Positions 32,982-63,869 are shown, numbered from the stretch's first letter. The stretch is DNA of 64,000 nt from Nitrososphaera sp. (GCA_039938515.1 JBDUUL010000001.1:107760-171759); one strand, 5' to 3'. A program made the numbers and translations. The notes: a model not told the origin generated them from the letters alone.

Positions 32982-33055
32982 TGGGGCCGGCCGGATTCGA
33001 ACCAGCGACCTCCAGCGCCCGAGGCTGGCATCCTACCATGCTAGACAACGGCCCC
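32982..33055 (-). tRNA. tRNA-Pro(CGG), CCA not encoded
   Basis: The reverse complement reads GGGGCCGTTGTCTAGCATGGTAGGATGCCAGCCTCGGGCGCTGGAGGTCGCTGGTTCGAATCCGGCCGGCCCCA (74 nt). It forms a full cloverleaf with anticodon loop CUCGGGC. Confidence 0.88.
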
Positions 33056-45630: not shown

Positions 45631-46775
45631 GCATCTCAAAGAAGCGGTTATGTGCAATATTTATGATGGGCTCCGCCGCCCTTTTTCTTCAGCTGGGTAT
45701 TCTTCAACATGTCAGTGCGGAGGCGGTAACCTCTAATCCGTTCCGTGTTGGAGTACATCCATTCGATGTAGCCATTAATAACAACACTCACAAGGTCTTT
45801 GTTTCGGATTTGCAAGGGTATTCCGTATTTGTCTTTGATGATTCGGCCCAAAGAGTCATTGGTAATATCTCTTTACTTGATGTCAGTCCCGAATTGAAGT
45901 TTGATTACGAACCAACGTATTTGGCTGTGGACCCTACCACAAATAGGCTCTATGTAACTTATGAATGCGATTGCCATCCGAGTTATATCTCAGTAATAGA
46001 TGGGGCAACTTACAAAGTCGTTGACAAGATCACAATTCCTAATCTGCCAACGGGCATCGCGCTTAACCACTTGACGAACAAGATCTATATCACTTATGGC
46101 AACAACGAGACTACTGTCTTAGATGGTGCCACGCAAAAGATCATCTCAAACATTACAACTCAAGTTCCGATTTCCAAAGTAGCAGTGGATATGAAGACTA
46201 ACCGAATCTATCTCGGAACAAGCTCATCCGGCGAGGTGCTGATTGCTGATGGCAATTCCGACAGCGTGATCGGAACAATCCCGCTGCATGTTGGAGCAAG
46301 AATAGCCGATTTGGCAGTCAATGAAAAATCCAATCTGGTCTATGCTCTAAGCACCTCCACGAGTGCTGGATCTGGCGACCTGCCTGTTCCCTCAGCAACT
46401 TTGAGTATTGTAGACGGTCAAAGCAACACAGTCATTGGCAAGAGCATTCCGATAGGCTCATCGGGCGGAATTGCGATTGACGAAGCGCATAATCGGACAT
46501 TTATTAGCCAAAATTACGGAAATTCTATCTTTACAGTGAATCAATCAGACAACATGACAACTTTCTCAAACCTAATGGTTGGTGAGAAGTATTATCCAAA
46601 TCGGTTGGCTTTTAGTGGCGATTCAGGCCACCTTTATGCAGTAACTACAGGCACATACGTTATGCTATCAATTGGGTCACAAGAGCTTCCGACCCCAGAG
46701 TTCTCATCATCAACCTCTTTCATTGTAGCTGGAGTTGCAGTTACCCTGATTGTCCTTTTGCGAAAGCGACTTTAA
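45627..46775 (+). CDS. YVTN-type beta-propeller repeat protein with signal peptide and PEF-CTERM-like anchor
   Basis: 382 aa with recurring ~40-aa units (NKVFVSD, NRLYVTY, NKIYITY, NRIYLGT, NLVYALS). Its ATG overlaps the upstream stop (ATGA). The C-terminus is PTPEFSSSTSFIVAGVAVTLIVLLRKRL. Confidence 0.8.
   Translation: MSISKKRLCAIFMMGSAALFLQLGILQHVSAEAVTSNPFRVGVHPFDVAINNNTHKVFVSDLQGYSVFVFDDSAQRVIGNISLLDVSPELKFDYEPTYLAVDPTTNRLYVTYECDCHPSYISVIDGATYKVVDKITIPNLPTGIALNHLTNKIYITYGNNETTVLDGATQKIISNITTQVPISKVAVDMKTNRIYLGTSSSGEVLIADGNSDSVIGTIPLHVGARIADLAVNEKSNLVYALSTSTSAGSGDLPVPSATLSIVDGQSNTVIGKSIPIGSSGGIAIDEAHNRTFISQNYGNSIFTVNQSDNMTTFSNLMVGEKYYPNRLAFSGDSGHLYAVTTGTYVMLSIGSQELPTPEFSSSTSFIVAGVAVTLIVLLRKRL
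46689..46772 (+). other. PEF-CTERM-like sorting signal (P-E-F, TM helix, basic tail)
   Basis: The last 28 codons encode PTPEFSSSTSFIVAGVAVTLIVLLRKRL. This tripartite shape is characteristic of archaeosortase/exosortase-type C-terminal signals. Confidence 0.55.
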
Positions 46776-47310: not shown

Positions 47311-50300
47311 TTGTCAGCGTTAGGTAGGATACCCTCCAGCCGAGGTTCTAAGCTTCGCCTTGTTTCAATTACCTGTATGGCGGTTCTGCTTCTTGCTGTG
47401 TTATTGCCTACCTTGAGCCACTCCAACTTACCTCGCGCCTCTGCTCTCGTTCTGACTCCAAGTGTTAATCGGCCAAGCAGCAGTTCTTTGAGCTCTGTAC
47501 AATTCAATTCAATTGATTCGATGACGCACGGTACTGCAAGTCCGACTCACATCATAATTTTACAGGATTCGCAATCGTGCAGTATTATTAGTGGCAATTG
47601 GAGTGAAACGGGCAATCTGTGCAATCTTACCGAGCCATCTGCGATTAATTCAACGACAGAGATTGATGTGATAAATGGTGTAACGCTGCAGACTAGTATT
47701 TCTGACACTATTGGTCAGCTAAATAACACTGGCAAAATTGTAGTTTTAAAAGGAGGCATTTTGAACAACTTTGGGCTTGACCATCTTTACAATTATGGAA
47801 ATATTACTATTGAACATGGGGGTGCTTTGTATAATTATGGTTCCACGATAATCAACACAAACGGAGCCTTTGTACAAAATGGAGGCGAAATTGAGAATCA
47901 AGGCGGAACAATACTCAATGATGCGGCTTCATCTTTTACGATAACTGCTGGAGGTGATTTGTACTTCAACAGAGGAAGCAGCTTCAGTAATTTTGGAATA
48001 CTGGTCGATAATGGAAGCTGGGAGGTTACGGGTGGGATTTATAATAATGCTACGGGCGAGATAATCAACAATGCCGTCTTGTCGTTGGATGGCGAATTTG
48101 GAGCGCCAGACATACATTTTACAAATTATGGACAGGTTCTGAATAGCGCCGGCGCAAATCTCACATTGTACAATGGAGCAGGCTTGGCAAACTATGGGCT
48201 AGTTTCAAACGCTGGAAATCTTGCGTATTTCGGCGGGACCGTTGCAAATCAGCCGTCCGGTGTGATAAACAACCTCATCACCGGGCTTGTTGACCCAAGT
48301 TTCTTAAATAATTCCGGAATAATTAACAACTATGGTAGTTTTGAATCTTCAACAAGTGCATCAGTCACAAACGCTGGCACTATTACCGATTTCTGCAATG
48401 CAGTATTTAACACCAATCCGCCGAATACGTATTCTGGCACTCCAATAGTAACTATACCGTGTTCCGCCTTCCCAATCACTTGGATGTCAGACACTACTGC
48501 ATCAGGTGGCACGTCAGTCTACGCCAAAAAGCAAATGAGCACAGAATTTGTCAGTATTACGTCAGCATTGAAAGGCCGGCAGATAGACTCTATGTCTCTT
48601 CAACTTGATAGGGTCGGTCACCCAACGGGTGCTGTCCAAGTCGGCGTTTTTGCACCTGACTTGTCTCTTAAGCAGCTCTTCGGTTCAATTGATGCTTCAA
48701 GCCTGAGCACTACGTATACAAATTATGCCTTCCAGCTCCCGAATAACCAGCTATACACAATCCAGTCCGGCGATTATATCGGCGTAAAGTTTGCAGGCGG
48801 CGATTCTTCAAACTATGTGATGGTCATGCGTGACTGGTCGAATAAATTTGACGGCACGAACTCGTTCAGGGCATGGTACAATACTACATGGTGGAATTAT
48901 CTGGGCGACGACCTTGACATGGTGCTCAAACAAACACATCCTGTCCTCAAAGCGCCTGAAGCAATATCAATAACTTCAACGAGCAACCTCTCTCCAAGAT
49001 GGGGCGTTGACACCGTGTCAATATCTGGCACAACCACCAACAGCGTCAGCAGCGACTCGGTGTCTGTTAATTGGGGCGATGGCTCAACTACATCGGGCAT
49101 TGCAATATCTTCAGGTACTTGGACTTCGCCCACACATACCTATTCTGCTTCAGCAGTTGGTAGCAGGACAATTGCAGCAACGTTGGGCAATAGTAGTATG
49201 TCCGTCAAGGCGACTAGCAATTCCGTTTCAGTCACTGTTCAAAGACACGCCACATCCGCCTCCCTTGTTCTTTCCTCGACAACTATTCCAGCAGGCAGTA
49301 CCATAACAGCGTCAGGAATCTTGGTTGACAGCGATGCGGCAAATGCCAAGATTTCTGGAAGCTCGATCACATTTACAGGCACTGGTGCAGTAAACCTCGC
49401 TAGCACGATAACAAATGGTACTGGTGGCTACTCGTCTGCTGGACCTTCTCCTAATACGGTTGCGAACGGCTGGACGGTACAAGCACACTATGCAGGCAAT
49501 GCAAGTTATGCTCCAACAGACAGCCCGGCTGTAAGTTATACCACAAGCGCCATTGGCTTGTCGTACCCAATTACACAAATGTCTGACACCACTGCTTCAG
49601 GTGGCACTTCGGTTTATTCTGCAAAGCAGGCAGATATGGAGCTCGTTACCAACACGTCTGCTCTCGTAGGCAAGCCGATTGACTTGATAACGATGCGCAT
49701 GGCAAAATCTGGAAGTCCAACTGGAATACTACAGGTAGGTGTATTTTCAAAGAATTTGGCGGTCAAGACGTTGTTCGGGACTCTGAATGCTTCTGCGATT
49801 ACAGGCACTTACAGCAATTACACCTTCCAGCTCTCAAATAACCAATTATACACAATTCAATCAGGTGACTACATCGGAGTAAAGTACACCGGCGGTAACT
49901 CTTTGAACTATATTCTCGTGATGCGCGACTGGCTAAACAAATTTGATGGTACAAACTCATTCAGATCTTGGTATAACACCACGTGGTGGAATTATACTGG
50001 AGATGATCTGTATATGACTCTGAAACAGACGCATCCAGCATCGCTTTATCCCTTAACTGTCATGGACGATCAGGCTGCATCTGGAACAACGCCTGTATAC
50101 TTTGGACACCATTTGGATGCAGAATCCTTTACAGGTGCTTCAGTTGCGGTTAACAAAAAGATAGACACCATTACGCTGCAGCTTGCTAAAACAGGTAATG
50201 TGCAGGGGCCTGTGGCCATAGGAATATTCCATCGGAATTTATCCACTTACAAGGCGTATTACAACGGCACATGGAATTACAACTCACAACCAAATGCCCT

Positions 50301-51015
50301 AATTGACCTGAGCATGGTCTTGGAAAATTCGCAGTTGCGGTCATCGCACGAGTCAGTTGTGATGTATGAACCAACGTCATATCAACCCGTATCCGTGTAC
50401 TCTGCAAAGTCAGTAGAGGCGGAATATATCACAAATACGTCCTCTATTGTCAACAAGCAAATTGACACCATTACGCTGCAGCTTTCAAAGGTGAACAATC
50501 CTACCGGAACATTTCAAATCGGGGTATTCAATCCAGACACCTCTGTAAAGCAGCTATTCGGCACCATGAATGCGTCGGCGCTGACGTCGACATCAACAAG
50601 TTATCCTTTTCAGCTTCCCAGCAAACTGTTGTACACGATACAATCCGGGGACTATATTGGAATTAGATTTACGGGCGGTGATGCCAGCAACTACATCTTG
50701 GTAATGACGGATTTTGAGCATAGAGACGGAAAAGACCTGCAGCTCTTCGGATCCATAGACACCTCAGAGCTGACCTCCACTCCAACCAAGTATTCATTTC
50801 AACTACCCAACAATGCACTATATACAATTCAGGCAGGGGATTGGATAGGCGTCAAGTACAATGGCGGCGACGCTAGCAATTACATATCTGTCATGAGAGA
50901 TGCGACAAACAAATTCGATGGAACTAATGCTGAGAGGGTGATATACGGTCTCCAGTATATAGTCTACATGCAAGGTGATGACTTGACAATGACCCTGCAG
51001 CAAACCCACGGCTAA
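47311..51015 (+). CDS. giant secreted protein: Asn/Gly-rich solenoid-like head, PKD domain, Ig-like module and four copies of an unrecognised ~157-aa domain
   Basis: 1234 aa. TTG start 25 nt after ttttataa (47279-47286). Signal anchor ITCMAVLLLAVLLPTL. PKD signature VNWGDGSTTSG...THTYSA. Repeats are described separately. Confidence 0.85.
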   Translation: MSALGRIPSSRGSKLRLVSITCMAVLLLAVLLPTLSHSNLPRASALVLTPSVNRPSSSSLSSVQFNSIDSMTHGTASPTHIIILQDSQSCSIISGNWSETGNLCNLTEPSAINSTTEIDVINGVTLQTSISDTIGQLNNTGKIVVLKGGILNNFGLDHLYNYGNITIEHGGALYNYGSTIINTNGAFVQNGGEIENQGGTILNDAASSFTITAGGDLYFNRGSSFSNFGILVDNGSWEVTGGIYNNATGEIINNAVLSLDGEFGAPDIHFTNYGQVLNSAGANLTLYNGAGLANYGLVSNAGNLAYFGGTVANQPSGVINNLITGLVDPSFLNNSGIINNYGSFESSTSASVTNAGTITDFCNAVFNTNPPNTYSGTPIVTIPCSAFPITWMSDTTASGGTSVYAKKQMSTEFVSITSALKGRQIDSMSLQLDRVGHPTGAVQVGVFAPDLSLKQLFGSIDASSLSTTYTNYAFQLPNNQLYTIQSGDYIGVKFAGGDSSNYVMVMRDWSNKFDGTNSFRAWYNTTWWNYLGDDLDMVLKQTHPVLKAPEAISITSTSNLSPRWGVDTVSISGTTTNSVSSDSVSVNWGDGSTTSGIAISSGTWTSPTHTYSASAVGSRTIAATLGNSSMSVKATSNSVSVTVQRHATSASLVLSSTTIPAGSTITASGILVDSDAANAKISGSSITFTGTGAVNLASTITNGTGGYSSAGPSPNTVANGWTVQAHYAGNASYAPTDSPAVSYTTSAIGLSYPITQMSDTTASGGTSVYSAKQADMELVTNTSALVGKPIDLITMRMAKSGSPTGILQVGVFSKNLAVKTLFGTLNASAITGTYSNYTFQLSNNQLYTIQSGDYIGVKYTGGNSLNYILVMRDWLNKFDGTNSFRSWYNTTWWNYTGDDLYMTLKQTHPASLYPLTVMDDQAASGTTPVYFGHHLDAESFTGASVAVNKKIDTITLQLAKTGNVQGPVAIGIFHRNLSTYKAYYNGTWNYNSQPNALIDLSMVLENSQLRSSHESVVMYEPTSYQPVSVYSAKSVEAEYITNTSSIVNKQIDTITLQLSKVNNPTGTFQIGVFNPDTSVKQLFGTMNASALTSTSTSYPFQLPSKLLYTIQSGDYIGIRFTGGDASNYILVMTDFEHRDGKDLQLFGSIDTSELTSTPTKYSFQLPNNALYTIQAGDWIGVKYNGGDASNYISVMRDATNKFDGTNAERVIYGLQYIVYMQGDDLTMTLQQTHG
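48472..48942 (+). repeat. protein-level repeat R1 (157 aa) of the novel domain
   Basis: PITWMSDTTASGGTSVYAKKQ...LYTIQSGDYIGVKFAGGDSSNYVMVMRDWSNKFDGTNSFRAWYNTTWWNYLGDDLDMVLKQTHP. Confidence 0.85.
49567..50037 (+). repeat. protein-level repeat R2 (157 aa) of the novel domain
   Basis: PITQMSDTTASGGTSVYSAKQ...LYTIQSGDYIGVKYTGGNSLNYILVMRDWLNKFDGTNSFRSWYNTTWWNYTGDDLYMTLKQTHP. It is collinear with R1 but diverged at many synonymous sites. Confidence 0.85.
50050..50331 (+). repeat. repeat R3 (94 aa), lacking the middle segment
   Basis: PLTVMDDQAASGTTPVYFGHH...IDTITLQLAKTGNVQGPVAIGIFHRNLS is joined directly to the tail-like YKAYYNGTWNYNSQPNALIDLSMVLENS. Confidence 0.7.
50353..51012 (+). repeat. repeat R4 (about 220 aa), with the middle segment duplicated
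   Basis: The block LFG..(N/D)(A/T)S.L(T/S)ST.T.Y.FQLP...LYTIQ.GD.IG(I/V)(R/K)..GGDASNYI.VM.D occurs twice in succession before the tail DDLTMTLQQTHG. Confidence 0.75.
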
Positions 51016-51124: not shown

Positions 51125-52633
51125 TTAACCAGAAATGAGGATGGTATACGATACTGCAGGCACTAGGTCTTGATTGCTCTCGCTATTTGAGAGATAGACC
51201 ATCAGAGTATATGCCCCACGCCCTTTTTCCGCCTCTGCAGCACCCATGTTAAACTTGACGCTAAATGTCGAGCCGTCATCGCTCCAGTTAGATGCCTCAA
51301 TGATGGGATGGCTCAAGTCTTGTTGGTATTCGTAGCCCGGCGGTGCCGGCTTGACCACTGAGCGCAACTGCTCCCCGCCGTCGTACGATGTTCTCTTGGC
51401 ATTAGCAAGGTAAACATCGTGAGTAGGAAACGGGTCATAGTTTACGGTTATAGCCTTGATTGAATAGCCTGATGCTACTGGCAGATACTTGCCAGTTAAT
51501 GAAATTGAATTGCCATTTGTTGTAATTGGCATGCTCAGCGAGACATAGTCGTTTTCAAAATTCTGCACCATAACTACTCCAAGATTGTTGTGAGCAATGC
51601 CAATGCTCACGCTTGTATGGTGTGCATCAAGAATGTTGTTCCTGTGTCCATTGTTACAGCACTGAAGATCGCCATTTACCATTCCATCCTCCTCGTTGCT
51701 AACTGCAGTCTGGACGTCAGTGGCACTCAATGGAATTGACTGAGCGGCTGAAAAGCAACAAGTCAGTGCGACATTCTGTTCGACATAATCTTTGCCGCCA
51801 TACCTAGTAAATGACATGTACGGTTTTTCTCCGCTGGTCATCCAATGTGAAATTTGCATTGTGCTGGCAATGTCTTCCGCCTGAGCTTGTGCAGCACCAT
51901 TAGTGCTCAAGGTCACGGGCGCAAGACCTGCACTTGCCCTGTCTTTATTGATTAGGTCCAGCGCAGTTTGCTTCAATACGTCAAGGGAAGGCGGCTGGGA
52001 TGCGGGAGGAGTGGGAGTCACAGGTGCAGCATATGAAAATATCTGAACCTGCTCAATGTCCGTTTCATTTCCTGCTTTGACTTCAAGCTGGTAGGTGTTG
52101 CCGGCGTCAATTGACTTGATTTTTCCTATGTTCAATACGTAAACTAGTCTCGTGCTGCTGGGCTCAATTGAAATCGAGCCCTGCTGCAGGTGGACATCGC
52201 CTGAGCCAAGTTGCAAGCCGTATGAGGGAGCAAAGTCAGGCTGCAGGACGGTATTTGATGCGGCTACGCAACCGCTGCATGAATACCAGTCGGTAGACGG
52301 TGAGTCAATACCGCGCAGCGATATTGACTTTATCTCTGCTGCCATGTTCCCAGTGTTAGTAATCACGATTGCTCCAGTCGCAGATCCATTAGATGCAGCC
52401 CAAGCGCTAGCCTCCGTGACTCTTATGAAAATGTATTTTTGGACAGGCGGAGCCACTTCGGGCTGCGGCGTTATTTCGGCTGGCTGAGAATTGAGAGGCG
52501 GGCTTGGCGCAGTGCCTTGGTCACTTGAAACAGATGTCGAAGCGACGTTTCCAATTCGGGCTGGAATCGATGCAAGCCTGTCTAGCGAGGGCAAAGTGTG
52601 ACCAGTTACAAAGTACATCGAGGTACCAACCAC
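51125..52633 (-). CDS. secreted CAP/SCP (YkwD-like) domain protein, paralog 1
   Basis: 502 aa. LDLINKDRASAGLAPVTLSTNGAAQAQAEDIA...HW...VEQNVA...CCNNGHRNNILDAHHTSVSIGIA is the bacterial-type CAP pattern. The N-terminal start is problematic (see findings). Confidence 0.8.
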   Translation of the reverse strand: MVGTSMYFVTGHTLPSLDRLASIPARIGNVASTSVSSDQGTAPSPPLNSQPAEITPQPEVAPPVQKYIFIRVTEASAWAASNGSATGAIVITNTGNMAAEIKSISLRGIDSPSTDWYSCSGCVAASNTVLQPDFAPSYGLQLGSGDVHLQQGSISIEPSSTRLVYVLNIGKIKSIDAGNTYQLEVKAGNETDIEQVQIFSYAAPVTPTPPASQPPSLDVLKQTALDLINKDRASAGLAPVTLSTNGAAQAQAEDIASTMQISHWMTSGEKPYMSFTRYGGKDYVEQNVALTCCFSAAQSIPLSATDVQTAVSNEEDGMVNGDLQCCNNGHRNNILDAHHTSVSIGIAHNNLGVVMVQNFENDYVSLSMPITTNGNSISLTGKYLPVASGYSIKAITVNYDPFPTHDVYLANAKRTSYDGGEQLRSVVKPAPPGYEYQQDLSHPIIEASNWSDDGSTFSVKFNMGAAEAEKGRGAYTLMVYLSNSESNQDLVPAVSYTILISG

Positions 52634-52888: not shown

Positions 52889-53485
52889 GTGTCTTATGAG
52901 GAAGGCAAGATCGGAGACGAATCTGGAGAGTGGTTCGAGCGATACGTTCAATCGATCTTCAGATATGCGGGATTCAGGACAGAGCGGCGTAAACGGTTTT
53001 TTCACACTGTAAAGCACGAGATTGATGTTTGGGCAGAATCTGAATTTGCCATAGTCGCAGTAGAATGTAAGGACTGGAGCAATTTGCGCCCTGAAAATAT
53101 CAAAAGCCAGATGGATGGGTTTATTCACAAAGTCAGAGTCCTTAATGCATCTGCTGGCGTTTTTGCCATTAACTTGCCCGGCAGGGAGGTGTATGGCAGA
53201 CATAGAGAGTACTTAAAAGAAAATGGTCTGACTTTGTGGGACGGAACTGACGTCCAGAAATGGCACGAGGACATGGAGCGGTACAGTCAGGATCGCTATC
53301 AAAGAGAACTTTGCGATGCTCTGGGCATTGAAATCTATGCACAAACAAATGCAGAAAAGTCGTTCAAGGTTCTAAAGGCGTTTGGCAAAGCAGCCCTCAA
53401 AGGCGCGGTACAGGTTGGCAAGAGCATGCTCGAGGAGGAAAAGCCGCGGAAGCGGAGGCGAACTGCCCGAAGTAGACGGTATTGA
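52889..53485 (+). CDS. Mrr-like PD-(D/E)xK restriction-endonuclease-fold protein with a basic C-terminal tail
   Basis: 198 aa. FERYVQSIFRYAGFRTERRK...HEIDVWAESEFAIVAVECKDW fits the D...E-x-K core. The tail is EEEKPRKRRRTARSRRY. Confidence 0.65.
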   Translation: MSYEEGKIGDESGEWFERYVQSIFRYAGFRTERRKRFFHTVKHEIDVWAESEFAIVAVECKDWSNLRPENIKSQMDGFIHKVRVLNASAGVFAINLPGREVYGRHREYLKENGLTLWDGTDVQKWHEDMERYSQDRYQRELCDALGIEIYAQTNAEKSFKVLKAFGKAALKGAVQVGKSMLEEEKPRKRRRTARSRRY

Positions 53486-54449: not shown

Positions 54450-55829
54450 ATGTTCGGCAAAAAGCTGGCATTTGCGATATTTTTGTCAGCCTCGCTTATT
54501 GCGCTGCCGCTTGGCACGCTTTCAGCTGCAGCAAATAACAACGCTGCTCACTTTATGGTACTGCGAGGCACTCCCGTTGTGCTGTATGCATCAGTCCAGA
54601 ATGACAATAATTCTCCGCGGCCGTTTGTAGCAATAATTGAGGTGCTGGATTCTAACGGAGTCGTCGACTCAATTCAGTTAAAAGACGACATTCTATCAGC
54701 TAATGACCATAAGACTGTCCAGAGCACATGGCTGGCAGACACAACTGGTAACTATTCAGTGATATCATTTGTAGTTGACAGCCTCAACAAGCCTCGCATA
54801 CTATCCCAGCCTCAGACCACTTTCGTAAGCGTAGTGGAGATTCCAACGGTTTCCTTGACAATTGACAAGAGTATAGGGAACCAAACCGCCCAGCCGTCAC
54901 AAGATACTGAGTATCATCCACAGGCTGCTGCCAACAATACGCAGAACAGCCTGAGTGCTGCACACAAACCGTCACTAGACGAGCTTCTGCAATATGCGCT
55001 CAAGGCAATCAATCATGATAGGGAAAAGTACGGCTTGTCTGATGTGAGGTTAAGTTCAAACCAAGCGGCTCAGGCTCATGCTCAGGACATGTATAACAAT
55101 TGGTACCCAACTCACTGGACTTCAGACGGAATGAAGCCATACATGCGATATACGGCCTATGGCGGCAATGGCTATGTGGTCCAAAATGTTGCTGCCGGCC
55201 CATCATACGACAATGCCACAATAGCTCAATGCAAGAGTGATCCTTCAGAATGCTATACGGTCGACCCGTACAAGGAGATTGACCATGCAGAATATGCAAT
55301 GATGTACAATGACTCTGCCTGCTGCGAGGACGGCCACAGAGACAACATACTTGACAAGTACCATACAGATGTTAGCATAGGCATCATCTACGACGACTAC
55401 TACTTTGCAATAGTGCAGAATTTTGAGAACAACTACATTCAGTATGACAAGCCCATAACTAAGGATAATAGAACGCTCGAGTTTTCGGGGAAGATCTTGT
55501 CTAGTACTCCAACCAGTGGAGGCGTACTAGCCGACGTCGAAATTAACTATGATGACGTACCCACTCACGCAGTTTACCTTGCAGACAGGGATCGCACCTC
55601 TTATGACGAAGGCACCTTTATCGGCGGAGTAAGCCCCGACAGTTCGTACTACGTTGACGCAAAGACTATTCTGGCGTCAAGGTGGGATGCTACAACTGGC
55701 TCAATTGACCTGTCATTTGACCTCTCTCCAATCCTTGACAAGAAGGGCGTCTATACCGTCTATGTTTACCTTGAAGACAGAAATGGTAATCAGTTTCCTG
55801 TTACCTCACATTCCATTTTCAACAGCTAG
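54450..55829 (+). CDS. secreted CAP/SCP (YkwD-like) domain protein, paralog 2
   Basis: 459 aa. Signal peptide (LAFAIFLSASLIALPLGTLSAAA). ALKAINHDREKYGLSDVRLSSNQAAQAHAQDM...HW...VVQNVA...CCEDGHRDNILDKYHTDVSIGII. The C-terminal domain is collinear with paralog 1. Confidence 0.8.
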   Translation: MFGKKLAFAIFLSASLIALPLGTLSAAANNNAAHFMVLRGTPVVLYASVQNDNNSPRPFVAIIEVLDSNGVVDSIQLKDDILSANDHKTVQSTWLADTTGNYSVISFVVDSLNKPRILSQPQTTFVSVVEIPTVSLTIDKSIGNQTAQPSQDTEYHPQAAANNTQNSLSAAHKPSLDELLQYALKAINHDREKYGLSDVRLSSNQAAQAHAQDMYNNWYPTHWTSDGMKPYMRYTAYGGNGYVVQNVAAGPSYDNATIAQCKSDPSECYTVDPYKEIDHAEYAMMYNDSACCEDGHRDNILDKYHTDVSIGIIYDDYYFAIVQNFENNYIQYDKPITKDNRTLEFSGKILSSTPTSGGVLADVEINYDDVPTHAVYLADRDRTSYDEGTFIGGVSPDSSYYVDAKTILASRWDATTGSIDLSFDLSPILDKKGVYTVYVYLEDRNGNQFPVTSHSIFNS

Positions 55830-55993: not shown

Positions 55994-56674
55994 ATGCCGT
56001 TACCGCTTGAGCTGCGCTCTCTCTTGCTCCCAATTCTAAACGGTATTGAAAGCGGCAAGTGCTTATGCGATAGCTACTCCGACCCAAACAACGGTTGGAT
56101 TCCTAGGATTATGACTGGCGCTAGGAAGGGCATGGATAATGTCAAACTGATTGTAGTTGGCAAGAATCCCGGTCATCCAGTTAGCGAAGAAGCTATGCTA
56201 TATCGTCAAGCCTTGTCTACTGCTCAGTCCAAAGAACAACAAAGGGAGCTTCTGTTTGATGCTATGGTTAGCTGGGGGGAGAGATGTCATCTCACATACA
56301 TTCAGGGCAGAAAGGGCACCTATCACAAACAGTTAATGAGGTTCTTGCGAGACGTGCTAGATACTAACGACAATGAGGAAGTTTTGGATACCGTCTACTT
56401 TACTGAGGCAATGAAGTGTTCAACTCCCAATGATTTACAGGCAAGGCTTGAATCAAAGACTGTCCGGCTCTGCATGACTAACTGGTTGGCAAAAGAATTT
56501 GCAATCCTCCCCAAAGTCCCTATACTTGCCTTGGGTAGAGAGGCCGACTGTTTCCTGCGCAAGATGTTTCCAGAAATGAATAGCAGAGTCGTCTACTTGT
56601 CTCATCCGAGTTGGCCGTTTAAGAATTATGAACTCGCAAAGCAGAATGTCCAATCTCAGCTGAAGCCCATCTAA
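55994..56674 (+). CDS. uracil-DNA glycosylase superfamily protein, atypical motif A
   Basis: 226 aa. VKLIVVGKNPGHPVSEE sits in the position of GEAPG..E. VYFTEAMKCSTPN corresponds to the NxVKCRP-type motif. PILALGREA and YLSHPSW (HPS motif B) are present. Confidence 0.65.
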   Translation: MPLPLELRSLLLPILNGIESGKCLCDSYSDPNNGWIPRIMTGARKGMDNVKLIVVGKNPGHPVSEEAMLYRQALSTAQSKEQQRELLFDAMVSWGERCHLTYIQGRKGTYHKQLMRFLRDVLDTNDNEEVLDTVYFTEAMKCSTPNDLQARLESKTVRLCMTNWLAKEFAILPKVPILALGREADCFLRKMFPEMNSRVVYLSHPSWPFKNYELAKQNVQSQLKPI

Positions 56675-57264: not shown

Positions 57265-59256
57265 TTAGGTGACATGGAGGCTTCTAGCAGGAGAGCTGCT
57301 GGGTGCATACAATGCGTCTCCAGCATATCTTGCTGTAATGCTGTAAGTACCGACTGATGTTGGTGCCAAGATATTGCTAACTGAATAGGCTCCCGTAGAA
57401 GACGTTACAGCGTTTGGAAGAGCAATCGGCAATGTCGCTGTAAATGATATGGTCTTGCTTGACAACACGGTATTGGTAACGGTATCTCTTAGCACTCCCC
57501 TGACATTGTAGTGACCGGTTGCATGGGCTACAGAATTGGGCTGGACTGTCAAAGTCAGAGCTGTAGCGTGTGCAACTGTCCTGTATGTCCTTGTCTGCGA
57601 GTTGGCAGAGTTGTACAGAGAATCGCCCACAAATTGTGCCTGAACCGTCCAGCCGTTACTTACGCTGGAAGCTGCAATGCCCACACCTCTCGCAATCCCG
57701 GTGGTTGAAGTGGCAGTGTCAGACACCGAAATTACTCCCGTGCCCGTAAAGTGTATCAGTCTTCCGGAGATTACGGAATTAGTATCAAGATCAGTTAGCC
57801 TTGCTGGAAATGATGTGGCTCTGCCCCACGGTATGGCATTTCCTATGGAGCCAAGAGCCAGCGCAGTGTTGTGCTTTCTTGTATCAAATGATAGAGCGCT
57901 GCTATCAGACGCTGGAGCGCCCGAGTCCCCCTTAAAATGGGCTTGAATAATCCAACCAGAAGCAATCTTGCTTGGAGCAGAGATTACGGCGTTGAAGCCG
58001 CCAGTTGAATTGGTAGTTGTTGTTGCAGCATATATGACGTTTACTGCTCCAAAAATAAACGGGTGCATTCCGTCATAGTATGGATAGTAACCAGCCTGAT
58101 TAAACGTAAAGTTGAAAGATTGACCCGGGTTTAGGATGTCTGACTCAAACCTTCCATTTGAGCTTCTGGTCGTATGGTTCCCTGAAACAACCCAATGCTC
58201 TGCAGTGTCGTCATTCGTCCATATTACGCGCTCGCCTGCAGGTATCAGTACATTTGTGGGATTGAAACTTGCACTCCCTATAGACACGGTAAGTGATGGC
58301 TGATTAGGAAATGAGCCGTCAAAGCCAATGGTCTTGCCTGCAAGTCCAGTTCCGTTACTGTCGAGAAGTCTTCCGGATACAACCATGTTCACGCCCCATG
58401 GCACCGGCGAAGATGGCGACAGCGATTTTATTGACAAAGTAGTCGGATGGCACGTGTTAATGACTGGATTGCCAGTCACGGTTCCAATATTGTCAAAGAC
58501 TCCGCTACAGTTGTCCTGAATTATTCCCAGATTATTGATGGTTCTGCCGTTGCTAAGTTTGCCCGTATTGCTTATGAGGCTGCCGTTCTGATTGTAAAAA
58601 GTACCAGTGTTATTGAAAAGCCCTTGTGCATTATTGTTTATCGTTCCGTAGTTGTAAAATCCCGGAAAGTAATTGATTGCCGTAAATGTACCGTTGTTGT
58701 TTATGGTCGCTCCGTTCTCATTGGCGAAATAATAGTCAGTCTCGAAAGAACTGCCATTGAGGTTATCAATAGTGTCATAATTGTAAAGATGGGTTAAACA
58801 GCAGGCAAGAATAGTTGACCCCTTCTCATTCAAAATTGTGCCATGATTGTAAATTTCACCGCCATCACACAAAATGCCGTCGCAACCTAAGTAAATGCCA
58901 CCGAAATTGTCAACTGTTCCGGAATTATTGAGGTACGAATCATCTAATTGCTCGCTGGTTTCATTATCGAAGGCTAAAAAAACGGCAGACCCGGATGGCT
59001 TGACTAAGAGGGTAACTCCTGAATCGACCTGCAAAATGCCTCCCAAGTAAAACACAGAGAGAGTGCAGGTACTCGTGCTAGAATTCCATACGGCTCCGAT
59101 TGCTTCGCAGCCGCCATTTGAGTCTCCGACCTTTAACTCTGCCGAAATGGCTGCTGCCCAAGCGGGACGAGTCGGCACAAAAAGGATGGGCGGTGCAACG
59201 AGTGTAAACATACTGACAAAAATCAGAATATGCCTGCGATTTATTCGGGGAGTCAA
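57265..59256 (-). CDS. secreted protein: Asn/Gly-rich solenoid-like head plus Ig-like modules with a nested, ligand-deficient cupredoxin-like domain
   Basis: 663 aa with a signal peptide (ILIFVSMFTLVAPPILFVPTRPAWA). The head is similar to that of the ORF at 47311. The C-terminal ~330 aa is collinear with the ORF at 59433. Confidence 0.85.
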   Translation of the reverse strand: MTPRINRRHILIFVSMFTLVAPPILFVPTRPAWAAAISAELKVGDSNGGCEAIGAVWNSSTSTCTLSVFYLGGILQVDSGVTLLVKPSGSAVFLAFDNETSEQLDDSYLNNSGTVDNFGGIYLGCDGILCDGGEIYNHGTILNEKGSTILACCLTHLYNYDTIDNLNGSSFETDYYFANENGATINNNGTFTAINYFPGFYNYGTINNNAQGLFNNTGTFYNQNGSLISNTGKLSNGRTINNLGIIQDNCSGVFDNIGTVTGNPVINTCHPTTLSIKSLSPSSPVPWGVNMVVSGRLLDSNGTGLAGKTIGFDGSFPNQPSLTVSIGSASFNPTNVLIPAGERVIWTNDDTAEHWVVSGNHTTRSSNGRFESDILNPGQSFNFTFNQAGYYPYYDGMHPFIFGAVNVIYAATTTTNSTGGFNAVISAPSKIASGWIIQAHFKGDSGAPASDSSALSFDTRKHNTALALGSIGNAIPWGRATSFPARLTDLDTNSVISGRLIHFTGTGVISVSDTATSTTGIARGVGIAASSVSNGWTVQAQFVGDSLYNSANSQTRTYRTVAHATALTLTVQPNSVAHATGHYNVRGVLRDTVTNTVLSSKTISFTATLPIALPNAVTSSTGAYSVSNILAPTSVGTYSITARYAGDALYAPSSSPARSLHVT
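58036..58293 (-). other. cupredoxin-like domain lacking the Cys and Met copper ligands
   Basis: LTVSIGSASFNPTNVLIPAGERVIWTNDDTAEHWVV...FNQAGYYPYYDGMHPFIFGAVNV. The codon at 58072-58074 is GAC (Asp) where the paralog has Cys. Confidence 0.6.
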
Positions 59257-59432
59257 TCTAGCAAACTGACTTTAAGGGTTGCTTATTAGTATACAATATC
59301 CGCTCTTGTTGACCTGTTACAGCGTTACTCGGGCATACTCGGTAGCACTGGAATACATTCGCTAACAGTTTGCCAATCTCTGCGGGTAGCCTAACTGACT
59401 GGATGCGAATGCAGAGTAATCTGCGACGGTTG

Positions 59433-62400
59433 CTACGTAACGGTCAGTAATCTCGCAGGGGAGTTACTCGGTGCATATAGTGTTTCTCCGGAATACCTTG
59501 CAGTGATGCTGTACGTTCCTGCAGCCGGTGGTGCAACCAGATTTGAAATGGCATATGTTCCAGTCGTGCTTGTTGTAGTGCTTGAAATTACTATTGGCGT
59601 TGTTGCTGTAAAGGTAATTGTCCTGCTTGTAAGAATAGTGTTGGTGACACTATCACGTAGTACCCCTCGTACGCTGTAAAGCCCCGTGCCATGTACGACA
59701 GATGTCGGCTGGATTGTCAAGGATAGAGAGGTGGCGTGAGTTGTGGTTCTGTACGTCCTTGTGAGCGAGCTGGCAGTATTGTACAGCGAGTCTCCTGTAA
59801 ATTGAGCTTGCACGGACCATCCAGTACCAATGCTGGATGGAGCAGTACCTGCACCGGTAGCTAATCCGCTGGTTGATGTTGTGGCGTCAGCAGTCGATAC
59901 AACCCCGCTTCCAAAATAGTGAACCAATCTTCCAGATACAGCGGAACTAGACTTGTCGAGGTCAGTCAGTGTTGCCGGGAATGACGTCGGTCTCCCCCAA
60001 GGAACGGAGGTTCGTATAGTACCAAGTGTAAGGGCAGTGTTGTGCTTTCTTGTATCAAACGTCTGAACTTGCCCTGCCGTTCCAGCGTTGGACGAGTCGC
60101 CGTCAAAGTGTGCCTGAAGAGTCCAGCTAGTGTTCACAGTATTGGGCGCAGCCAGTGAAATGCTGAAACTGCCTGTTGAAGTAGTGGTAGTTGTTGCGGC
60201 ATGAGAGACGTGAACCAATCCTTGCATGGTGGGATGCAACTGGCAGTAGTAGGCATAGTCGCCTATTTGGCGGAACGTAAAGCTAAATGAGTTTCCCGGA
60301 ATCAAAACCTTGGAGTCGAATATGCCGTCAGGTGTACCGGTCGACCCGTTGCCAGAAGTGACTGTATGAATTGCCGCATCTGCGTTAGTCCATACAACGC
60401 TGTCTCCTACCCTCGCATTCACAGGGTTTGGCGAGAATGCACTGCTTCCGAGGTTTTGTGCATTTTGGACGATAGAGACGTTTATCGTGTTGGAAGTAAA
60501 CATACTTCCATCAAACCAGATTGTTCGTGAGGCAAGCCCTATTCCGTTGCTATCGAAAAGGCTGCCCGATGAAACAAGCGTGCTGCCCCAAGGAACAGGC
60601 GACGTTGGTGTTATCGGATTCGTTGTAATTCTTGCACCCCGAACTGTAATGATGGCAGTGCTAGTACTTACCGGTGACTCCGAATGGTCATGATAAGTAA
60701 ATTGCAATTGATCGCCCGCTCTTAGACCATGCAGTGCAATTGGCACGTAGGCTTGGTTAAATGTAGACATGTTTAGGTTAGGACCGTTAAAGATACCCGT
60801 GTTGGGCCCGGTCTCTACAAAAACCATGCTGAGAGGCTGCGATGCAAAGCTGACCGGAGTTCCTGCGACAAGCAATGTTAGTGATGCCAAGCTGCCAAAA
60901 CTCTGGGAGGGCATGAACTGCCCAATGTTCTCGGCTCCGGAGTTTGCAGTTGAAAATGCAACTACAAAGCTGTCCGCAACATCAGGATTTGTGTTTAGGT
61001 CGTTATCTGAAATTGTGAGATGGAATTGACCATTAATTCCCACTGTCGCGGCAGACGAAGTTAAGGTTCCGGCAGTGTGTGAGACAGTTGTTATCAGTCT
61101 AAAGATCTTGCCGTGAATGTCCGGGCTACCTTGAGGGTCGGTGTATGTTATTACTACATTGTTGTTAGCAGCCAGCGTAGTTGCATTGATGAAGATGCCT
61201 GTCGGACCAAGCGAAGGGTTATTGTTGACAAAAGAATCGCCTAAGGTTAGTTGAATCGGAATTTTATTATCTGTTAGGTTTGGAACAAAAATTCCAGAGT
61301 TTGCTCCTGTTTCTACCATTGGCACTGACGCAAAGTAGCCGGTGGATATTGGGCCCTTTCCAAGTGTATTAATGGTAATATTGACAAGGCTATTGAAAGA
61401 GTCTATTGATTTCGTGCTGATGTTTCTGTCAGGGTCTGTAATTTGTAGCGCAATTCCGTTTGGAATGCTCACGGGATTGTTAAGTGCCAATACGCCATCA
61501 GAGTTTTGCAATGTGATTGTCTGACTTGAAGTAACTGACGGGTTTGGTATTATTGCATTGTACGGTGCAGTGGCACTCGCTGGAACGTTAGAATAGACGT
61601 CAAAGTCATGCAATGTCAATACAGAAGTACTTGGGAATAATGCGCCCCTCAGGGTTCCGCCATTTGTCGGATTGACCACGCCCAAGTTGGCGCTGGTCAC
61701 ATTCAAAGCAAGGTCAAACGACCCGGAATTCTGCCCCTCTTCCACAAACAGAGCTCCTGTTAGGTTAAGCGTCCCACCAGTTGCGGTAACTATTGAGGGT
61801 GTGGCAGCAAAGCTATCAACAGAGGTCGGATCTATGTTGGCATCTTGGTCGTTAAGTGTTAGAATAACTCTGTTGCCGTCACCTGCTGATGATCTGTCTA
61901 CTGATGCAATCACATTGGATTTCGAAAATTGCACCACACTTGTTTGTCCGCCGTAAGTAATTGTGATCGTGTCGCCGTCTCTGAGCGGTGCAGAGCTTGC
62001 GCTCAGCGGGAAGGAATATTCAGCTGGAATGCTTCCAAAACCAGCGGCCGCTTCAGTGGTGCTGCTGATGACTGGGTTTTGGCTAATTCTCACCATAATT
62101 GGTGAGCCTGCTGTGAATGACGGACTTGCTGGTTTGAATGGGCTGTTTGAAGTGGTCAGATAGAACTCGAATGTGCCTGATGTTCCAATGATTGGAACTG
62201 TAATGTCTTGCTCAAAGAGAGATGTTGAACCGCGCTTTACTGCTACGTGTGGTACGACTGAATCCGTAGCTGTATTTTTTGAAGTGTCCGTAATCAGGAC
62301 TCTCTCCAAAGCAGGGCCATAGAACTGGCTGCTGCTAGTGGTGATTGTTACCGGACTGTGCGGAATGCATGGATTGCTAAGTATGGTGCCGGTGTTGTAC

Positions 62401-63869
62401 TGGTTCTCATTTCCAAAGTCATTGACCGTGCCAGTTCCAGAAATTGTGCCTGCAGGATATGAGTTTCCGAAAAGCATGACGCATGGATGGGAAATGTCAG
62501 ACGGATATCCCGCTTGACTATAGAAAGGATAGAAATAGTCGGAGCCGCCGCAGCTTGAAGAGAAGCATGATTCCTCCGTCTTCAATTTCATTTGACTAAA
62601 TCCTTGATTATAGACACCAATGCCCGAAACGTAACTTTCCGGCCCAATCCCGTTTAGGGTAGGAGAATTTATTATCAGACTAGAGGGAAAGTTAGGGCTG
62701 CCATTTGGCCAGTCTGCCTTGTATGATAGTCCGTCATGGTCTGCATCTCCGCCGTTTTCACACGTGAGATAAAGCTGGAAGCAGGATGAATCATCATTAT
62801 CTTGGTCGCCTGCTGAACCTAATTCTGTATGCCCTATTTCGAATGCTAAATTTACGTTGACCGATTCTGCAGTCCATGGTACGTAGTTTCCGGCAGCGGC
62901 CGTATTAAACTCAGGATGAAAATCGTAACTGCTTGCTACACAAGTTGACGGATTCGTGTGCATAAATCCACTTAACCCGCTAGTGGTAACAGTCGCCGCT
63001 ACTGCGGTATTTTTGTCTAGAATTGTAATTTGCAGACCTGATGTAGTATCCTTCATTGTGATGAGTAATTGATCTCCGGGCTGCATTAGCATTGGATTAA
63101 CCGAGTTAGCAGGCGTGAAATATTGGCCGGTAAATGGTTCGTAACAATTCGAATTCTCAGTAAAGCTATCAATAGTAGCTGCTGCCTCCCAACCGGCTGC
63201 CGGATTAAAGCTAGAGCGATTCGATGGGACAAAGGCACCACCGGGTGGATAGAACTGCAGTTCAAGGAAGGCAGATCCAGCCGTCAAACCATTACTATCG
63301 CTATCTGGTGTGCACGACCCAAATGGGTATGAGAATGGGTCGCACATTGCTAGACCAAGCCATATCGCAGTATGGAGCTGATAATTTGCGACTACACTGC
63401 CTGACACGGTCGGTTGCGGGTCGGTGGACGGCAAGATTAATGACCACTGCAGGTTATTTGCGGAGTTGGGCGCATTCGAGTAGAACTGAACCGACGGCTC
63501 ATCATGACCAACATAATGACCGCTATCATTTCCCGCAACTGGATCAGCGCAGACGAGCGGATCATCGGGAAGATCGCCCTGTTGATTGTATCCATTACAA
63601 TCTGGATAATATTCTGCTCTCTGGTTTGGACTGTTAGCACGAGGTTGAATTTGATGATAATCGTGTGGTTTAAGATCATGTAGCAGGGTGTTTTCAGGAG
63701 CGATTGATGTTAATGTGGCGCTTGGGAGCACGCCATCAGGCATCACAAGAGAGTTCTTGCTGAATGCATAGATTGGGACACAAACAGTTGAAGGCGCCAA
63801 GAGAAGACTGGCGGCTAATAGCCCTATGGCAATAGAGAGGAATGACCTAGAGGAGAATTCTATAAACAC
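59433..63869 (-). CDS. giant secreted protein: Cys-rich N-terminal globular domain, serial beta-sandwich-like modules, nested type-1 copper (amicyanin-like) domain, Ig-like modules
   Basis: 1478 aa with a signal peptide (FLSIAIGLLAASLLLAPSTVCVPIYA) and an uninterrupted ORF. See findings for the domain evidence. Confidence 0.85.
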   Translation of the reverse strand: MFIEFSSRSFLSIAIGLLAASLLLAPSTVCVPIYAFSKNSLVMPDGVLPSATLTSIAPENTLLHDLKPHDYHQIQPRANSPNQRAEYYPDCNGYNQQGDLPDDPLVCADPVAGNDSGHYVGHDEPSVQFYSNAPNSANNLQWSLILPSTDPQPTVSGSVVANYQLHTAIWLGLAMCDPFSYPFGSCTPDSDSNGLTAGSAFLELQFYPPGGAFVPSNRSSFNPAAGWEAAATIDSFTENSNCYEPFTGQYFTPANSVNPMLMQPGDQLLITMKDTTSGLQITILDKNTAVAATVTTSGLSGFMHTNPSTCVASSYDFHPEFNTAAAGNYVPWTAESVNVNLAFEIGHTELGSAGDQDNDDSSCFQLYLTCENGGDADHDGLSYKADWPNGSPNFPSSLIINSPTLNGIGPESYVSGIGVYNQGFSQMKLKTEESCFSSSCGGSDYFYPFYSQAGYPSDISHPCVMLFGNSYPAGTISGTGTVNDFGNENQYNTGTILSNPCIPHSPVTITTSSSQFYGPALERVLITDTSKNTATDSVVPHVAVKRGSTSLFEQDITVPIIGTSGTFEFYLTTSNSPFKPASPSFTAGSPIMVRISQNPVISSTTEAAAGFGSIPAEYSFPLSASSAPLRDGDTITITYGGQTSVVQFSKSNVIASVDRSSAGDGNRVILTLNDQDANIDPTSVDSFAATPSIVTATGGTLNLTGALFVEEGQNSGSFDLALNVTSANLGVVNPTNGGTLRGALFPSTSVLTLHDFDVYSNVPASATAPYNAIIPNPSVTSSQTITLQNSDGVLALNNPVSIPNGIALQITDPDRNISTKSIDSFNSLVNITINTLGKGPISTGYFASVPMVETGANSGIFVPNLTDNKIPIQLTLGDSFVNNNPSLGPTGIFINATTLAANNNVVITYTDPQGSPDIHGKIFRLITTVSHTAGTLTSSAATVGINGQFHLTISDNDLNTNPDVADSFVVAFSTANSGAENIGQFMPSQSFGSLASLTLLVAGTPVSFASQPLSMVFVETGPNTGIFNGPNLNMSTFNQAYVPIALHGLRAGDQLQFTYHDHSESPVSTSTAIITVRGARITTNPITPTSPVPWGSTLVSSGSLFDSNGIGLASRTIWFDGSMFTSNTINVSIVQNAQNLGSSAFSPNPVNARVGDSVVWTNADAAIHTVTSGNGSTGTPDGIFDSKVLIPGNSFSFTFRQIGDYAYYCQLHPTMQGLVHVSHAATTTTTSTGSFSISLAAPNTVNTSWTLQAHFDGDSSNAGTAGQVQTFDTRKHNTALTLGTIRTSVPWGRPTSFPATLTDLDKSSSAVSGRLVHYFGSGVVSTADATTSTSGLATGAGTAPSSIGTGWSVQAQFTGDSLYNTASSLTRTYRTTTHATSLSLTIQPTSVVHGTGLYSVRGVLRDSVTNTILTSRTITFTATTPIVISSTTTSTTGTYAISNLVAPPAAGTYSITARYSGETLYAPSNSPARLLTVT
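60207..60485 (-). other. cupredoxin domain with a complete type-1 copper ligand set (His, Cys, His, Met)
   Basis: INVSIVQNAQNLGSSAFSPNPVNARVGDSVVWTNADAAIHTVTS...GDYAYYCQLHPTMQGLVHV. Cys codon TGC is at 60243-60245 and Met codon ATG at 60225-60227. The C-x2-H-x2-M spacing matches amicyanin. Confidence 0.7.

Follow-up and report, generated by a model that had tools for sequence, protein, structure and literature searches.

The subject of this work is a pair of tandem genes in a 64,000-nt stretch of DNA (the window, to which all coordinates refer) from a metagenome-assembled genome (MAG) of Nitrososphaera sp. Both genes, here called A and B, lie on the minus strand of the window, which is part of a 437-kb MAG contig, and the product of each carries the NCBI name 'plastocyanin/azurin family copper-binding protein [Nitrososphaera sp.]'. 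The two proteins end in the same cassette of three immunoglobulin (Ig)-like modules, the first of which is split by an inserted cupredoxin domain. In B this domain carries the full ligand set of a type-1 copper site, whereas in A the positions of the Cys and Met ligands are held by Asp and Ile. The parts of the two genes that matter here are listed below with the evidence for each; HMM stands for hidden Markov model (in the list, one of unsplit Ig-like modules) and pLDDT for the predicted local distance difference test score of AlphaFold2 models.

57265..59256, minus: gene A, a 663-aa open reading frame (ORF) with a TTG start
58312..58446, minus: A, N-terminal half of Ig-like module 1, residues 271-315, ending ...TIGFDGS (HMM 8-47 at residues 278-316; pLDDT 83-95)
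58030..58311, minus: A, inserted cupredoxin, residues 316-409, 94 aa (Pfam, PDB sequence match, codons)
57877..58029, minus: A, C-terminal half of Ig-like module 1, residues 410-460 (HMM 47-106 at residues 403-465, E 3e-15; pLDDT 82-92)
57268..57876, minus: A, Ig-like modules 2 and 3, residues 461-663 (A/B alignment, HMM)
59433..63869, minus: gene B, a 1478-aa ORF
60504..60635, minus: B, N-terminal half of Ig-like module 1, residues 1079-1122, ending ...TIWFDGS (Ig-only alignments; HMM 8 to ~49)
60201..60503, minus: B, inserted cupredoxin, residues 1123-1223, 101 aa (Pfam, PDB, AlphaFold2, Foldseek, codons)
60048..60200, minus: B, C-terminal half of Ig-like module 1, residues 1224-1274, AATTTTT...WTLQAHFDGD... 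(HMM 52-106, E 1e-12)
59436..60047, minus: B, Ig-like modules 2 and 3, residues 1275-1478, both unsplit, with B ending at module 3

The C-terminal regions of A and B are 56% identical over 398 aa (E 2e-129). Thus, the shared cassette described in an earlier note on this DNA is borne out, but its length is about 400 aa and not the ~330 aa given there. Module 3 of B, taken alone, matches the Pfam family Big_3_5 (PF16640) with 36.3 bits, against a threshold of 35.5; the scores of this family in full-length A and B, at 28.6-32.1 bits, fall under it. Module 1 with the insert spliced out matches only CarboxypepD_reg, at a sub-threshold 18.5 bits, and the match crosses the splice point.

The inserted domain and its topology

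The inserted segment is a cupredoxin in both A and B, as the earlier note had claimed. In the HMM comparison proposed there, both inserts pass the gathering threshold of Pfam Copper-bind (PF00127, 21.2 bits), with 25.2 bits for A and 29.6 for B, and A also passes Cupredoxin_1 (29.4 bits, threshold 27). Among PDB sequences the best match of the B insert is 9cck (1.8e-14), then 5fc9 (4e-11), then plastocyanins and amicyanins, and the A insert yields the same matches, with 5fc9 covering the whole domain at 1.5e-11. An AlphaFold2 model of B residues 1075-1280, made with 31 cupredoxin homologues, has a pLDDT of 92-98 over the insert, which superposes on 5fc9 (Foldseek) with a TM-score of 0.91 and a root-mean-square deviation of 1.7 Å. 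The A insert, for which the alignment is shallow, is modelled with low confidence, and its fold is assigned from the sequence match to 5fc9.

The four ligands of B are His1168 (60366-60368), Cys1209 (TGC, 60243-60245), His1212 (60234-60236) and Met1215 (60225-60227). They have the spacing C-x2-H-x2-M in the ligand loop and align in register with those of 9cck, 5fc9 and amicyanin, so that the set of an upstream His and C-x2-H-x2-M noticed earlier is a complete type-1 set. The corresponding residues of A are His354 (58195-58197), Asp395 (GAC, 58072-58074), His398 (58063-58065) and Ile401 (58054-58056), giving a D-x2-H-x2-I loop; in the PDB sequence search the Cys, His and Met ligands of amicyanin are matched by Asp395, His398 and Ile401, respectively. 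Read on the DNA, the codons agree with the earlier description of A as having Asp and Ile for Cys and Met with both His residues kept, including TGC in the one gene and GAC in the other. With Asp at the Cys position and Ile at the Met position, A is not a type-1 site.

The nearest relatives of the B insert are free or terminally fused 'plastocyanins' of Nitrososphaera and cupredoxins of Nitrosopumilus. The Nitrososphaera plastocyanins have an identical YYCQLHPTM loop; their identity to the insert is 54-59% in BLASTP alignments and reaches 65% when HMM match columns are compared. The description of the domain as amicyanin-like therefore holds for the ligand-loop spacing and not for family membership: with the NCBIfam amicyanin equivalog TIGR02657, whose cut-off is 110.2 bits, B scores 35.1 and A 30, and amicyanin orthology was rejected. 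No mau genes were found among the neighbours scanned, a scan that did not cover the window exhaustively.

The cupredoxin is inserted within the Ig-like fold and is not a tandem domain. The insert that breaks up the first module measures 94 aa in A and 101 aa in B, and the split is far beyond what chance would give. Unsplit copies of the module for comparison are module 2 of A and of B, the metagenomic proteins P0055 and P0056, a Nitrososphaera MAG in GTDB (L001) and the following copy in the window itself, which shows the uninterrupted form within the same genome:

49231..49566, plus: unsplit Ig-like module in a third giant secreted protein (47311..51015, plus, 1234 aa; HMM E 3.7e-42, positions 2-107)

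The rest of this third protein has no confident family match. An independent HMM was built from four unsplit modules, none of them from A or B. It matches A in two pieces, positions 8-47 (E 1e-5) and 47-106, which lie 86 residues apart in the protein, and its match to B is split in the same manner, from 8 to ~49 and from 52 to 106. In an Ig-only alignment all nine unsplit modules span both flanks, leaving a single gap of ~94 columns that is the cupredoxin. The cupredoxin enters between two strands, the first with FDGS at its end and the next opening with ATTTT. The split of the first module by about 90 aa, which the earlier note had read from the sequence, thus stands.

An ordinary tandem arrangement, with the cupredoxin placed between two separate small domains, is very improbable, and so is an artefact of assembly. 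The flanks did have a low pLDDT (41-59) in the first AlphaFold2 model, made with the cupredoxin-only alignment. Combined MAFFT alignments put Ig sequences onto the cupredoxin; cupredoxin and Ig homologues were aligned separately, and with the Ig-only alignment both flanks of A are confident, at 83-95 on the N-terminal and 82-92 on the C-terminal side. Foldseek then lays ~198 query columns on single beta-sandwich domains of ~110 residues, such as MG4 of C5 (TM-score 0.62), which is the expectation if both flanks make one sandwich; the structure prediction suggested in the earlier note thus agrees with the nested topology. Two small domains would also fit poorly with half-module matches that abut at HMM position 47 and with nine unsplit homologues that cross the gap. 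An assembly artefact was rejected on two grounds: the paralogues, though diverged, are split alike, and L011, a contig from a JGI metagenome that was deposited separately, matches the window with 100% identity over 6384 bp.

The nesting is the unusual part of the architecture, and it is known from one population so far. When 1.84 billion cluster representatives were searched exhaustively with phmmer, the cupredoxin had 22,883 matches, and the Ig flanks were covered only by A and B. Nested copies were likewise absent from the fetched loci and from scans of GTDB genomes and JGI metagenomes, in which nine cupredoxins of the ordinary kind and a single unsplit Ig module turned up. One word-seeded homology search gave matches to the cupredoxin part only, and another gave just two homologues of the Ig module. 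The literature search found no description of a cupredoxin nested in an Ig-like domain. Cupredoxins of both the Asp and the Cys type do occur elsewhere on large extracellular proteins with Ig/MG2 repeats, but in tandem, and the general theme is therefore not unique. The earlier claim of an undescribed architecture thus survives for the nesting, given the literature and the 1.84 billion representatives, but not for the display of a cupredoxin on an Ig-repeat scaffold.

The aspartate site of A

The cupredoxins of A and B have diverged unequally. Over HMM match columns, B is 59-65% identical to outgroup Nitrososphaera domains, A 38-40%, and A is 48% identical to B, from which the branch of the A cupredoxin is about three times longer than that of B. 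In the Ig modules the asymmetry between A and B is small, at 4-7 points. The reading frame of the A insert is intact and it scores 84 bits on the family HMM. Both His residues, the His-Pro and the exact loop length (D-x2-H-P) are kept.

One reading of this divergence is that the cupredoxin of A is degenerate, a metal-free module kept as a structural or binding surface. Such a course has precedent in the plant early-nodulin-like phytocyanins, which have lost their copper ligands, and it would explain why both the Cys thiolate and the axial Met are gone, why the branch is long and why the motif after the first His has changed from HTVTSG to HWVVSG. The insert also has no homologue sharing enough 5-residue words to be found in a word-seeded search, though that search missed the window's own proteins as well. 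A degenerate module is a substantial possibility, but the less probable one. It sits uneasily with the retention of both His residues, the His-Pro and the exact spacing, and with scores that are still above the Pfam thresholds and reach 84 bits on the family model. The nature of the replacement also speaks against it, as Asp is itself a metal-binding residue, and the way in which it recurs in related domains bears on the same point.

To the extent of a survey of 692 cupredoxin domains, extracted from ~200 fetched proteins ranked by similarity to B, the Cys position is held by Cys in 609, by Asp in 72 and by another residue or a gap in 11, so that Asp accounts for 72 of the 83 non-Cys cases. 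The change from Cys (TGY) to Asp (GAY) takes two base changes, and mutation bias is therefore no explanation for the excess of Asp. For at least eight Asp-type domains with both His residues the nearest relative is of the Cys type; examples are P0192 (77% identity, to a domain of the same protein), P0129 (63%) and P0195 (62%). These relationships indicate repeated, independent switches from Cys to Asp, and several origins of this kind are hard to fit to simple decay. There is also a regularity in position, since 51 of the 123 proteins with three or more cupredoxin domains have an Asp-type domain first, followed by Cys-type domains. Asp-type first domains often have the form H-R-x-R ... Y-x-D-x-R-N. 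Tandem cupredoxin proteins, with up to 10-12 domains, are common, with 167 matches at E<=1e-30 among the fetched proteins P0058-P0206; nothing was found in the literature on tandem multi-cupredoxin proteins with an Asp-type first domain.

There are precedents for copper binding with Asp in place of Cys. Azurin variants with Cys112Asp bind Cu(II), as cited in PMC11966278 and PMC8915257. FtrB, a natural cupredoxin, binds Cu2+ through D118-x2-H121, and the D118A change abolishes binding. The 'type zero' ligand set, two His and an Asp (His2Asp) with a hydrophobic axial residue, is matched by A at the level of sequence. Thus, the kept His residues and loop, the recurrence of Asp and the precedents of azurin C112D and FtrB moderately favour a retuned His2Asp metal site in A over a dead one. 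The earlier note had called A a 'ligand-dead twin' of B; with Asp recurrent, apparently convergent and accompanied by both His residues and an unaltered loop, a changed site is at least as likely.

A broader and rather doubtful proposal is that A and the independently derived Asp-for-Cys domains form a natural class in which the cupredoxin fold carries a non-blue copper site of the His2Asp type. If so, they would be the natural counterpart of the engineered 'type zero' and type-2 azurins, working beside type-1 domains on archaeal surface proteins. In theory, the Asp-type sites could, for example, handle Cu(II)/Fe(II) or provide a second redox step, with the nested module acting as a rigid display device.

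Export, surroundings and proposed working of the pair

The start of each gene is called differently by different annotations. For A, the NCBI product (MEO9319224.1) has 648 aa from Met16 and the JGI call has 596 aa. For B, the NCBI product (MEO9319225.1) has 1050 aa from an internal start at Leu429, but the frame is open for a further 428 codons upstream and opens with a hydrophobic, signal-like segment. In a hydropathy scan the only hydrophobic segment of each protein is N-terminal, and neither has an anchor at the C-terminus; A and B are probably secreted. From the TTG start, A has the N-terminal sequence RINRRHILIF, which resembles a twin-arginine signal. The regions ahead of the cassette are as follows.

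58453..59151, minus: A, N-terminal region, residues 36-268, Asn/Gly-rich with short repeats, without a family match
63762..63869, minus: B, N-terminal hydrophobic segment, residues 1-36, presumed signal peptide (hydropathy scan; the sole transmembrane-like segment of B)
60645..61907, minus: B, three ~145-aa repeats, residues ~655-1075, with a DxDxN ... ETGxNSGxF motif, without a Pfam match

The repeats in residues 36-268 of A (…NNNGTFTAINYFPGFYNYGTINNNAQGLFNNTGTFYNQNGSLISNTGKLSNGRTINNLG…) suggest a beta-helix-like repeat domain. The repeat motif of B recurs in giant proteins of the Nitrososphaera MAG L001 and in the metagenomic cupredoxin proteins P0201 and P0151, and may mark an undescribed archaeal surface-repeat domain. 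A PDB sequence search with the N-terminal 1080 aa of B was empty, and Pfam and NCBIfam matches of B are confined to the cassette.

The surroundings of the pair are rich in secreted proteins. Secreted CAP (cysteine-rich secretory protein family) proteins at 51125-52633 (minus) and 54450-55829 (plus) flank the locus, and an Mrr-like restriction endonuclease (52889-53485) and a UDG-superfamily protein (55994-56674) are located between the CAP genes and gene A. At 41278-45630 (plus) lies a gene for a 1450-aa protein with only a weak, sub-threshold match to a reprolysin-like zinc-metallopeptidase motif, and next after it, at 45627-46775, a gene for an NHL/beta-propeller-like protein. The GC content is 0.49-0.54 in 1-36000 and 0.43-0.48 in 40001-64000, the part with the giant secreted proteins, which is downstream of this gene:

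32982-33055, minus: tRNA-Pro(cgg)

An integrated mobile element at tRNA-Pro was considered for the drop in GC. No integrase was found among the ORFs scanned beside it, and the origin of the region as an island is unproven.

A joint account of the pair, which we hold to be probable with moderate confidence, runs as follows. A and B are tandem paralogues in a Nitrososphaera, an ammonia-oxidising archaeon of soil, and would be secreted as multidomain proteins with a three-module Ig-like stalk at the end. In their common ancestor a complete plastocyanin-family cupredoxin would have been inserted into one loop of the first Ig-like module, after which the gene, or at least the cassette, would have been duplicated. 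B would have kept the canonical type-1 site and remained similar to the small, free blue-copper proteins of Nitrososphaera, which makes it most likely a copper-binding, tethered one-electron carrier. Ammonia-oxidising archaea presumably use plastocyanins to carry electrons (PMC7785015). Since a plastocyanin-type fold has its two chain ends on the side away from the copper site, insertion via both termini would face the copper end outward; B would thus be a carrier or redox relay held rigidly outside the cell or in the pseudo-periplasm, with its copper end away from the scaffold. The cupredoxin of A would have evolved about three times faster, exchanging Cys and Met for Asp and Ile while both His residues, the His-Pro and the loop length were preserved, and it most likely now forms a retuned His2Asp site, for non-blue Cu(II) of type-2 or 'type-zero' character or for another metal.

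Instead of electron transfer, the two cupredoxins might serve to capture, buffer or sense copper at the cell surface. Ammonia-oxidising archaea depend heavily on copper and many of their copper proteins are regulated under limitation (PMC7785015). The proteins are apparently secreted and have no recognisable redox enzyme domain, and a His2Asp site would favour Cu(II). This role, which partly overlaps with the account just given, seems unlikely. The site and loop of B are identical to those of free plastocyanin-like carriers. Moreover, a buried type-1 site is a poor exchangeable store of copper, and no Cop/CopC/CopD-type genes are present among the neighbours scanned.

Several points weigh against insertion, duplication and a retuned site in A as the history of the pair. 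Copper binding, a role in electron transfer and the binding of any metal by A are deduced from sequence and from known relatives. Neither of the AlphaFold2 models reaches confidence across the entire module, which follows from the use of two separate alignments, and the convergence of the ligands and the contacts between the flanks are read from homology and from the lengths of the Foldseek alignments. The faster evolution of A also fits relaxed constraint. The combination of Asp and Ile in the nested context comes from one sequence, from which conservation cannot be judged, and the survey of the Cys position is limited to those ~200 proteins most similar to B. The first ~650 residues of B have no Pfam, NCBIfam or PDB match, and no redox partner was identified.

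If the joint account holds, the locus is of interest on several levels. The energy metabolism of ammonia-oxidising archaea runs on copper proteins, and a blue-copper carrier held rigidly in an extracellular scaffold suggests that electrons or copper are handled outside the membrane. The insertion is a rare case of a metal domain within an Ig-like domain, and the pair amounts to a natural experiment in which the same scaffold carries two different copper sites. The main wider interest lies in the pointer to natural Asp-type sites. Cys-less sites in the cupredoxin fold have until now been studied mainly as engineered azurin mutants, and the Asp-type copy points to a wider, apparently undescribed natural class.

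Comparison with known systems

The blue-copper proteins of ammonia-oxidising archaea, such as Nmar_1307 of Nitrosopumilus maritimus (PDB 5fc9) and the free Nitrososphaera proteins P0001-P0005, belong to the same family and fold as the inserts. They are free, membrane-tethered or terminally fused, whereas the domain of A and B lies inside another domain and in A has Asp and Ile. As in B, a type-1 cupredoxin is covalently tethered to a larger protein in 9cck (a multicopper oxidase/NirK-like protein of N. maritimus whose cupredoxin is C-terminal) and in Thermus NirK (6hbe), where it serves as a built-in relay for electrons. In these proteins, however, the cupredoxin is fused at one end to an established redox enzyme, while that of B is nested in an Ig-like module of a protein with no recognisable catalytic domain. 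Amicyanin (TIGR02657) has the same C-x2-H-x2-M spacing as B and gives sequence matches of ~1e-8, but the equivalog cut-off is missed.

For the site of A, the closest ligand sets are those of engineered azurins, C112D and the 'type zero' C112D/M121X variants, with His, Asp, His and a hydrophobic, non-coordinating axial residue; M121L is one of these variants, and they bind Cu(II). These are laboratory mutants, whereas A is natural, belongs to a plastocyanin-like subfamily and is known from its sequence. The M121X series described by Lancaster et al. in 2009 reportedly included Phe and also Ile, the residue found in A. Among natural proteins, the Cup-II cupredoxins (FtrB and, by the authors' classification, the N-terminal domains of EfeO) are Cys-less and have the Asp-x2-His spacing of A. 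FtrB and EfeO chains are absent from the PDB matches of A up to E = 10, so that only the D-x2-H spacing is common, and FtrB serves a periplasmic iron-uptake system, a context unlike that of A.

The architecture as a whole is most closely approached by P0129, P0201 and P0151, large secreted proteins that combine Ig-like/MG2 domains with cupredoxins of mixed Cys and Asp type and have a DxDxN...ETGxxSGxF repeat as in B. Their domains stand in series and are not nested as in A and B; the proteins are uncharacterised, and nothing was found in the literature on tandem Ig/MG2-cupredoxin surface proteins. P0129 (gene at 6596-10141 of L012, a Logan contig from SRR29547198) has Ig/MG2-like domains with two Cys-type cupredoxins and one of the Asp type, and its contig, an archaeal one, also has two integrases, a further MG2 protein and a gene resembling that of the archaeal PolD small subunit. 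For nesting as such, parallels come from unrelated proteins. The beta-I domain of integrins lies inside the hybrid domain, and the TED of complement C3 inside the CUB domain; in both, as in A and B, a whole domain occupies a loop of a beta-sandwich, but the guests are not cupredoxins.

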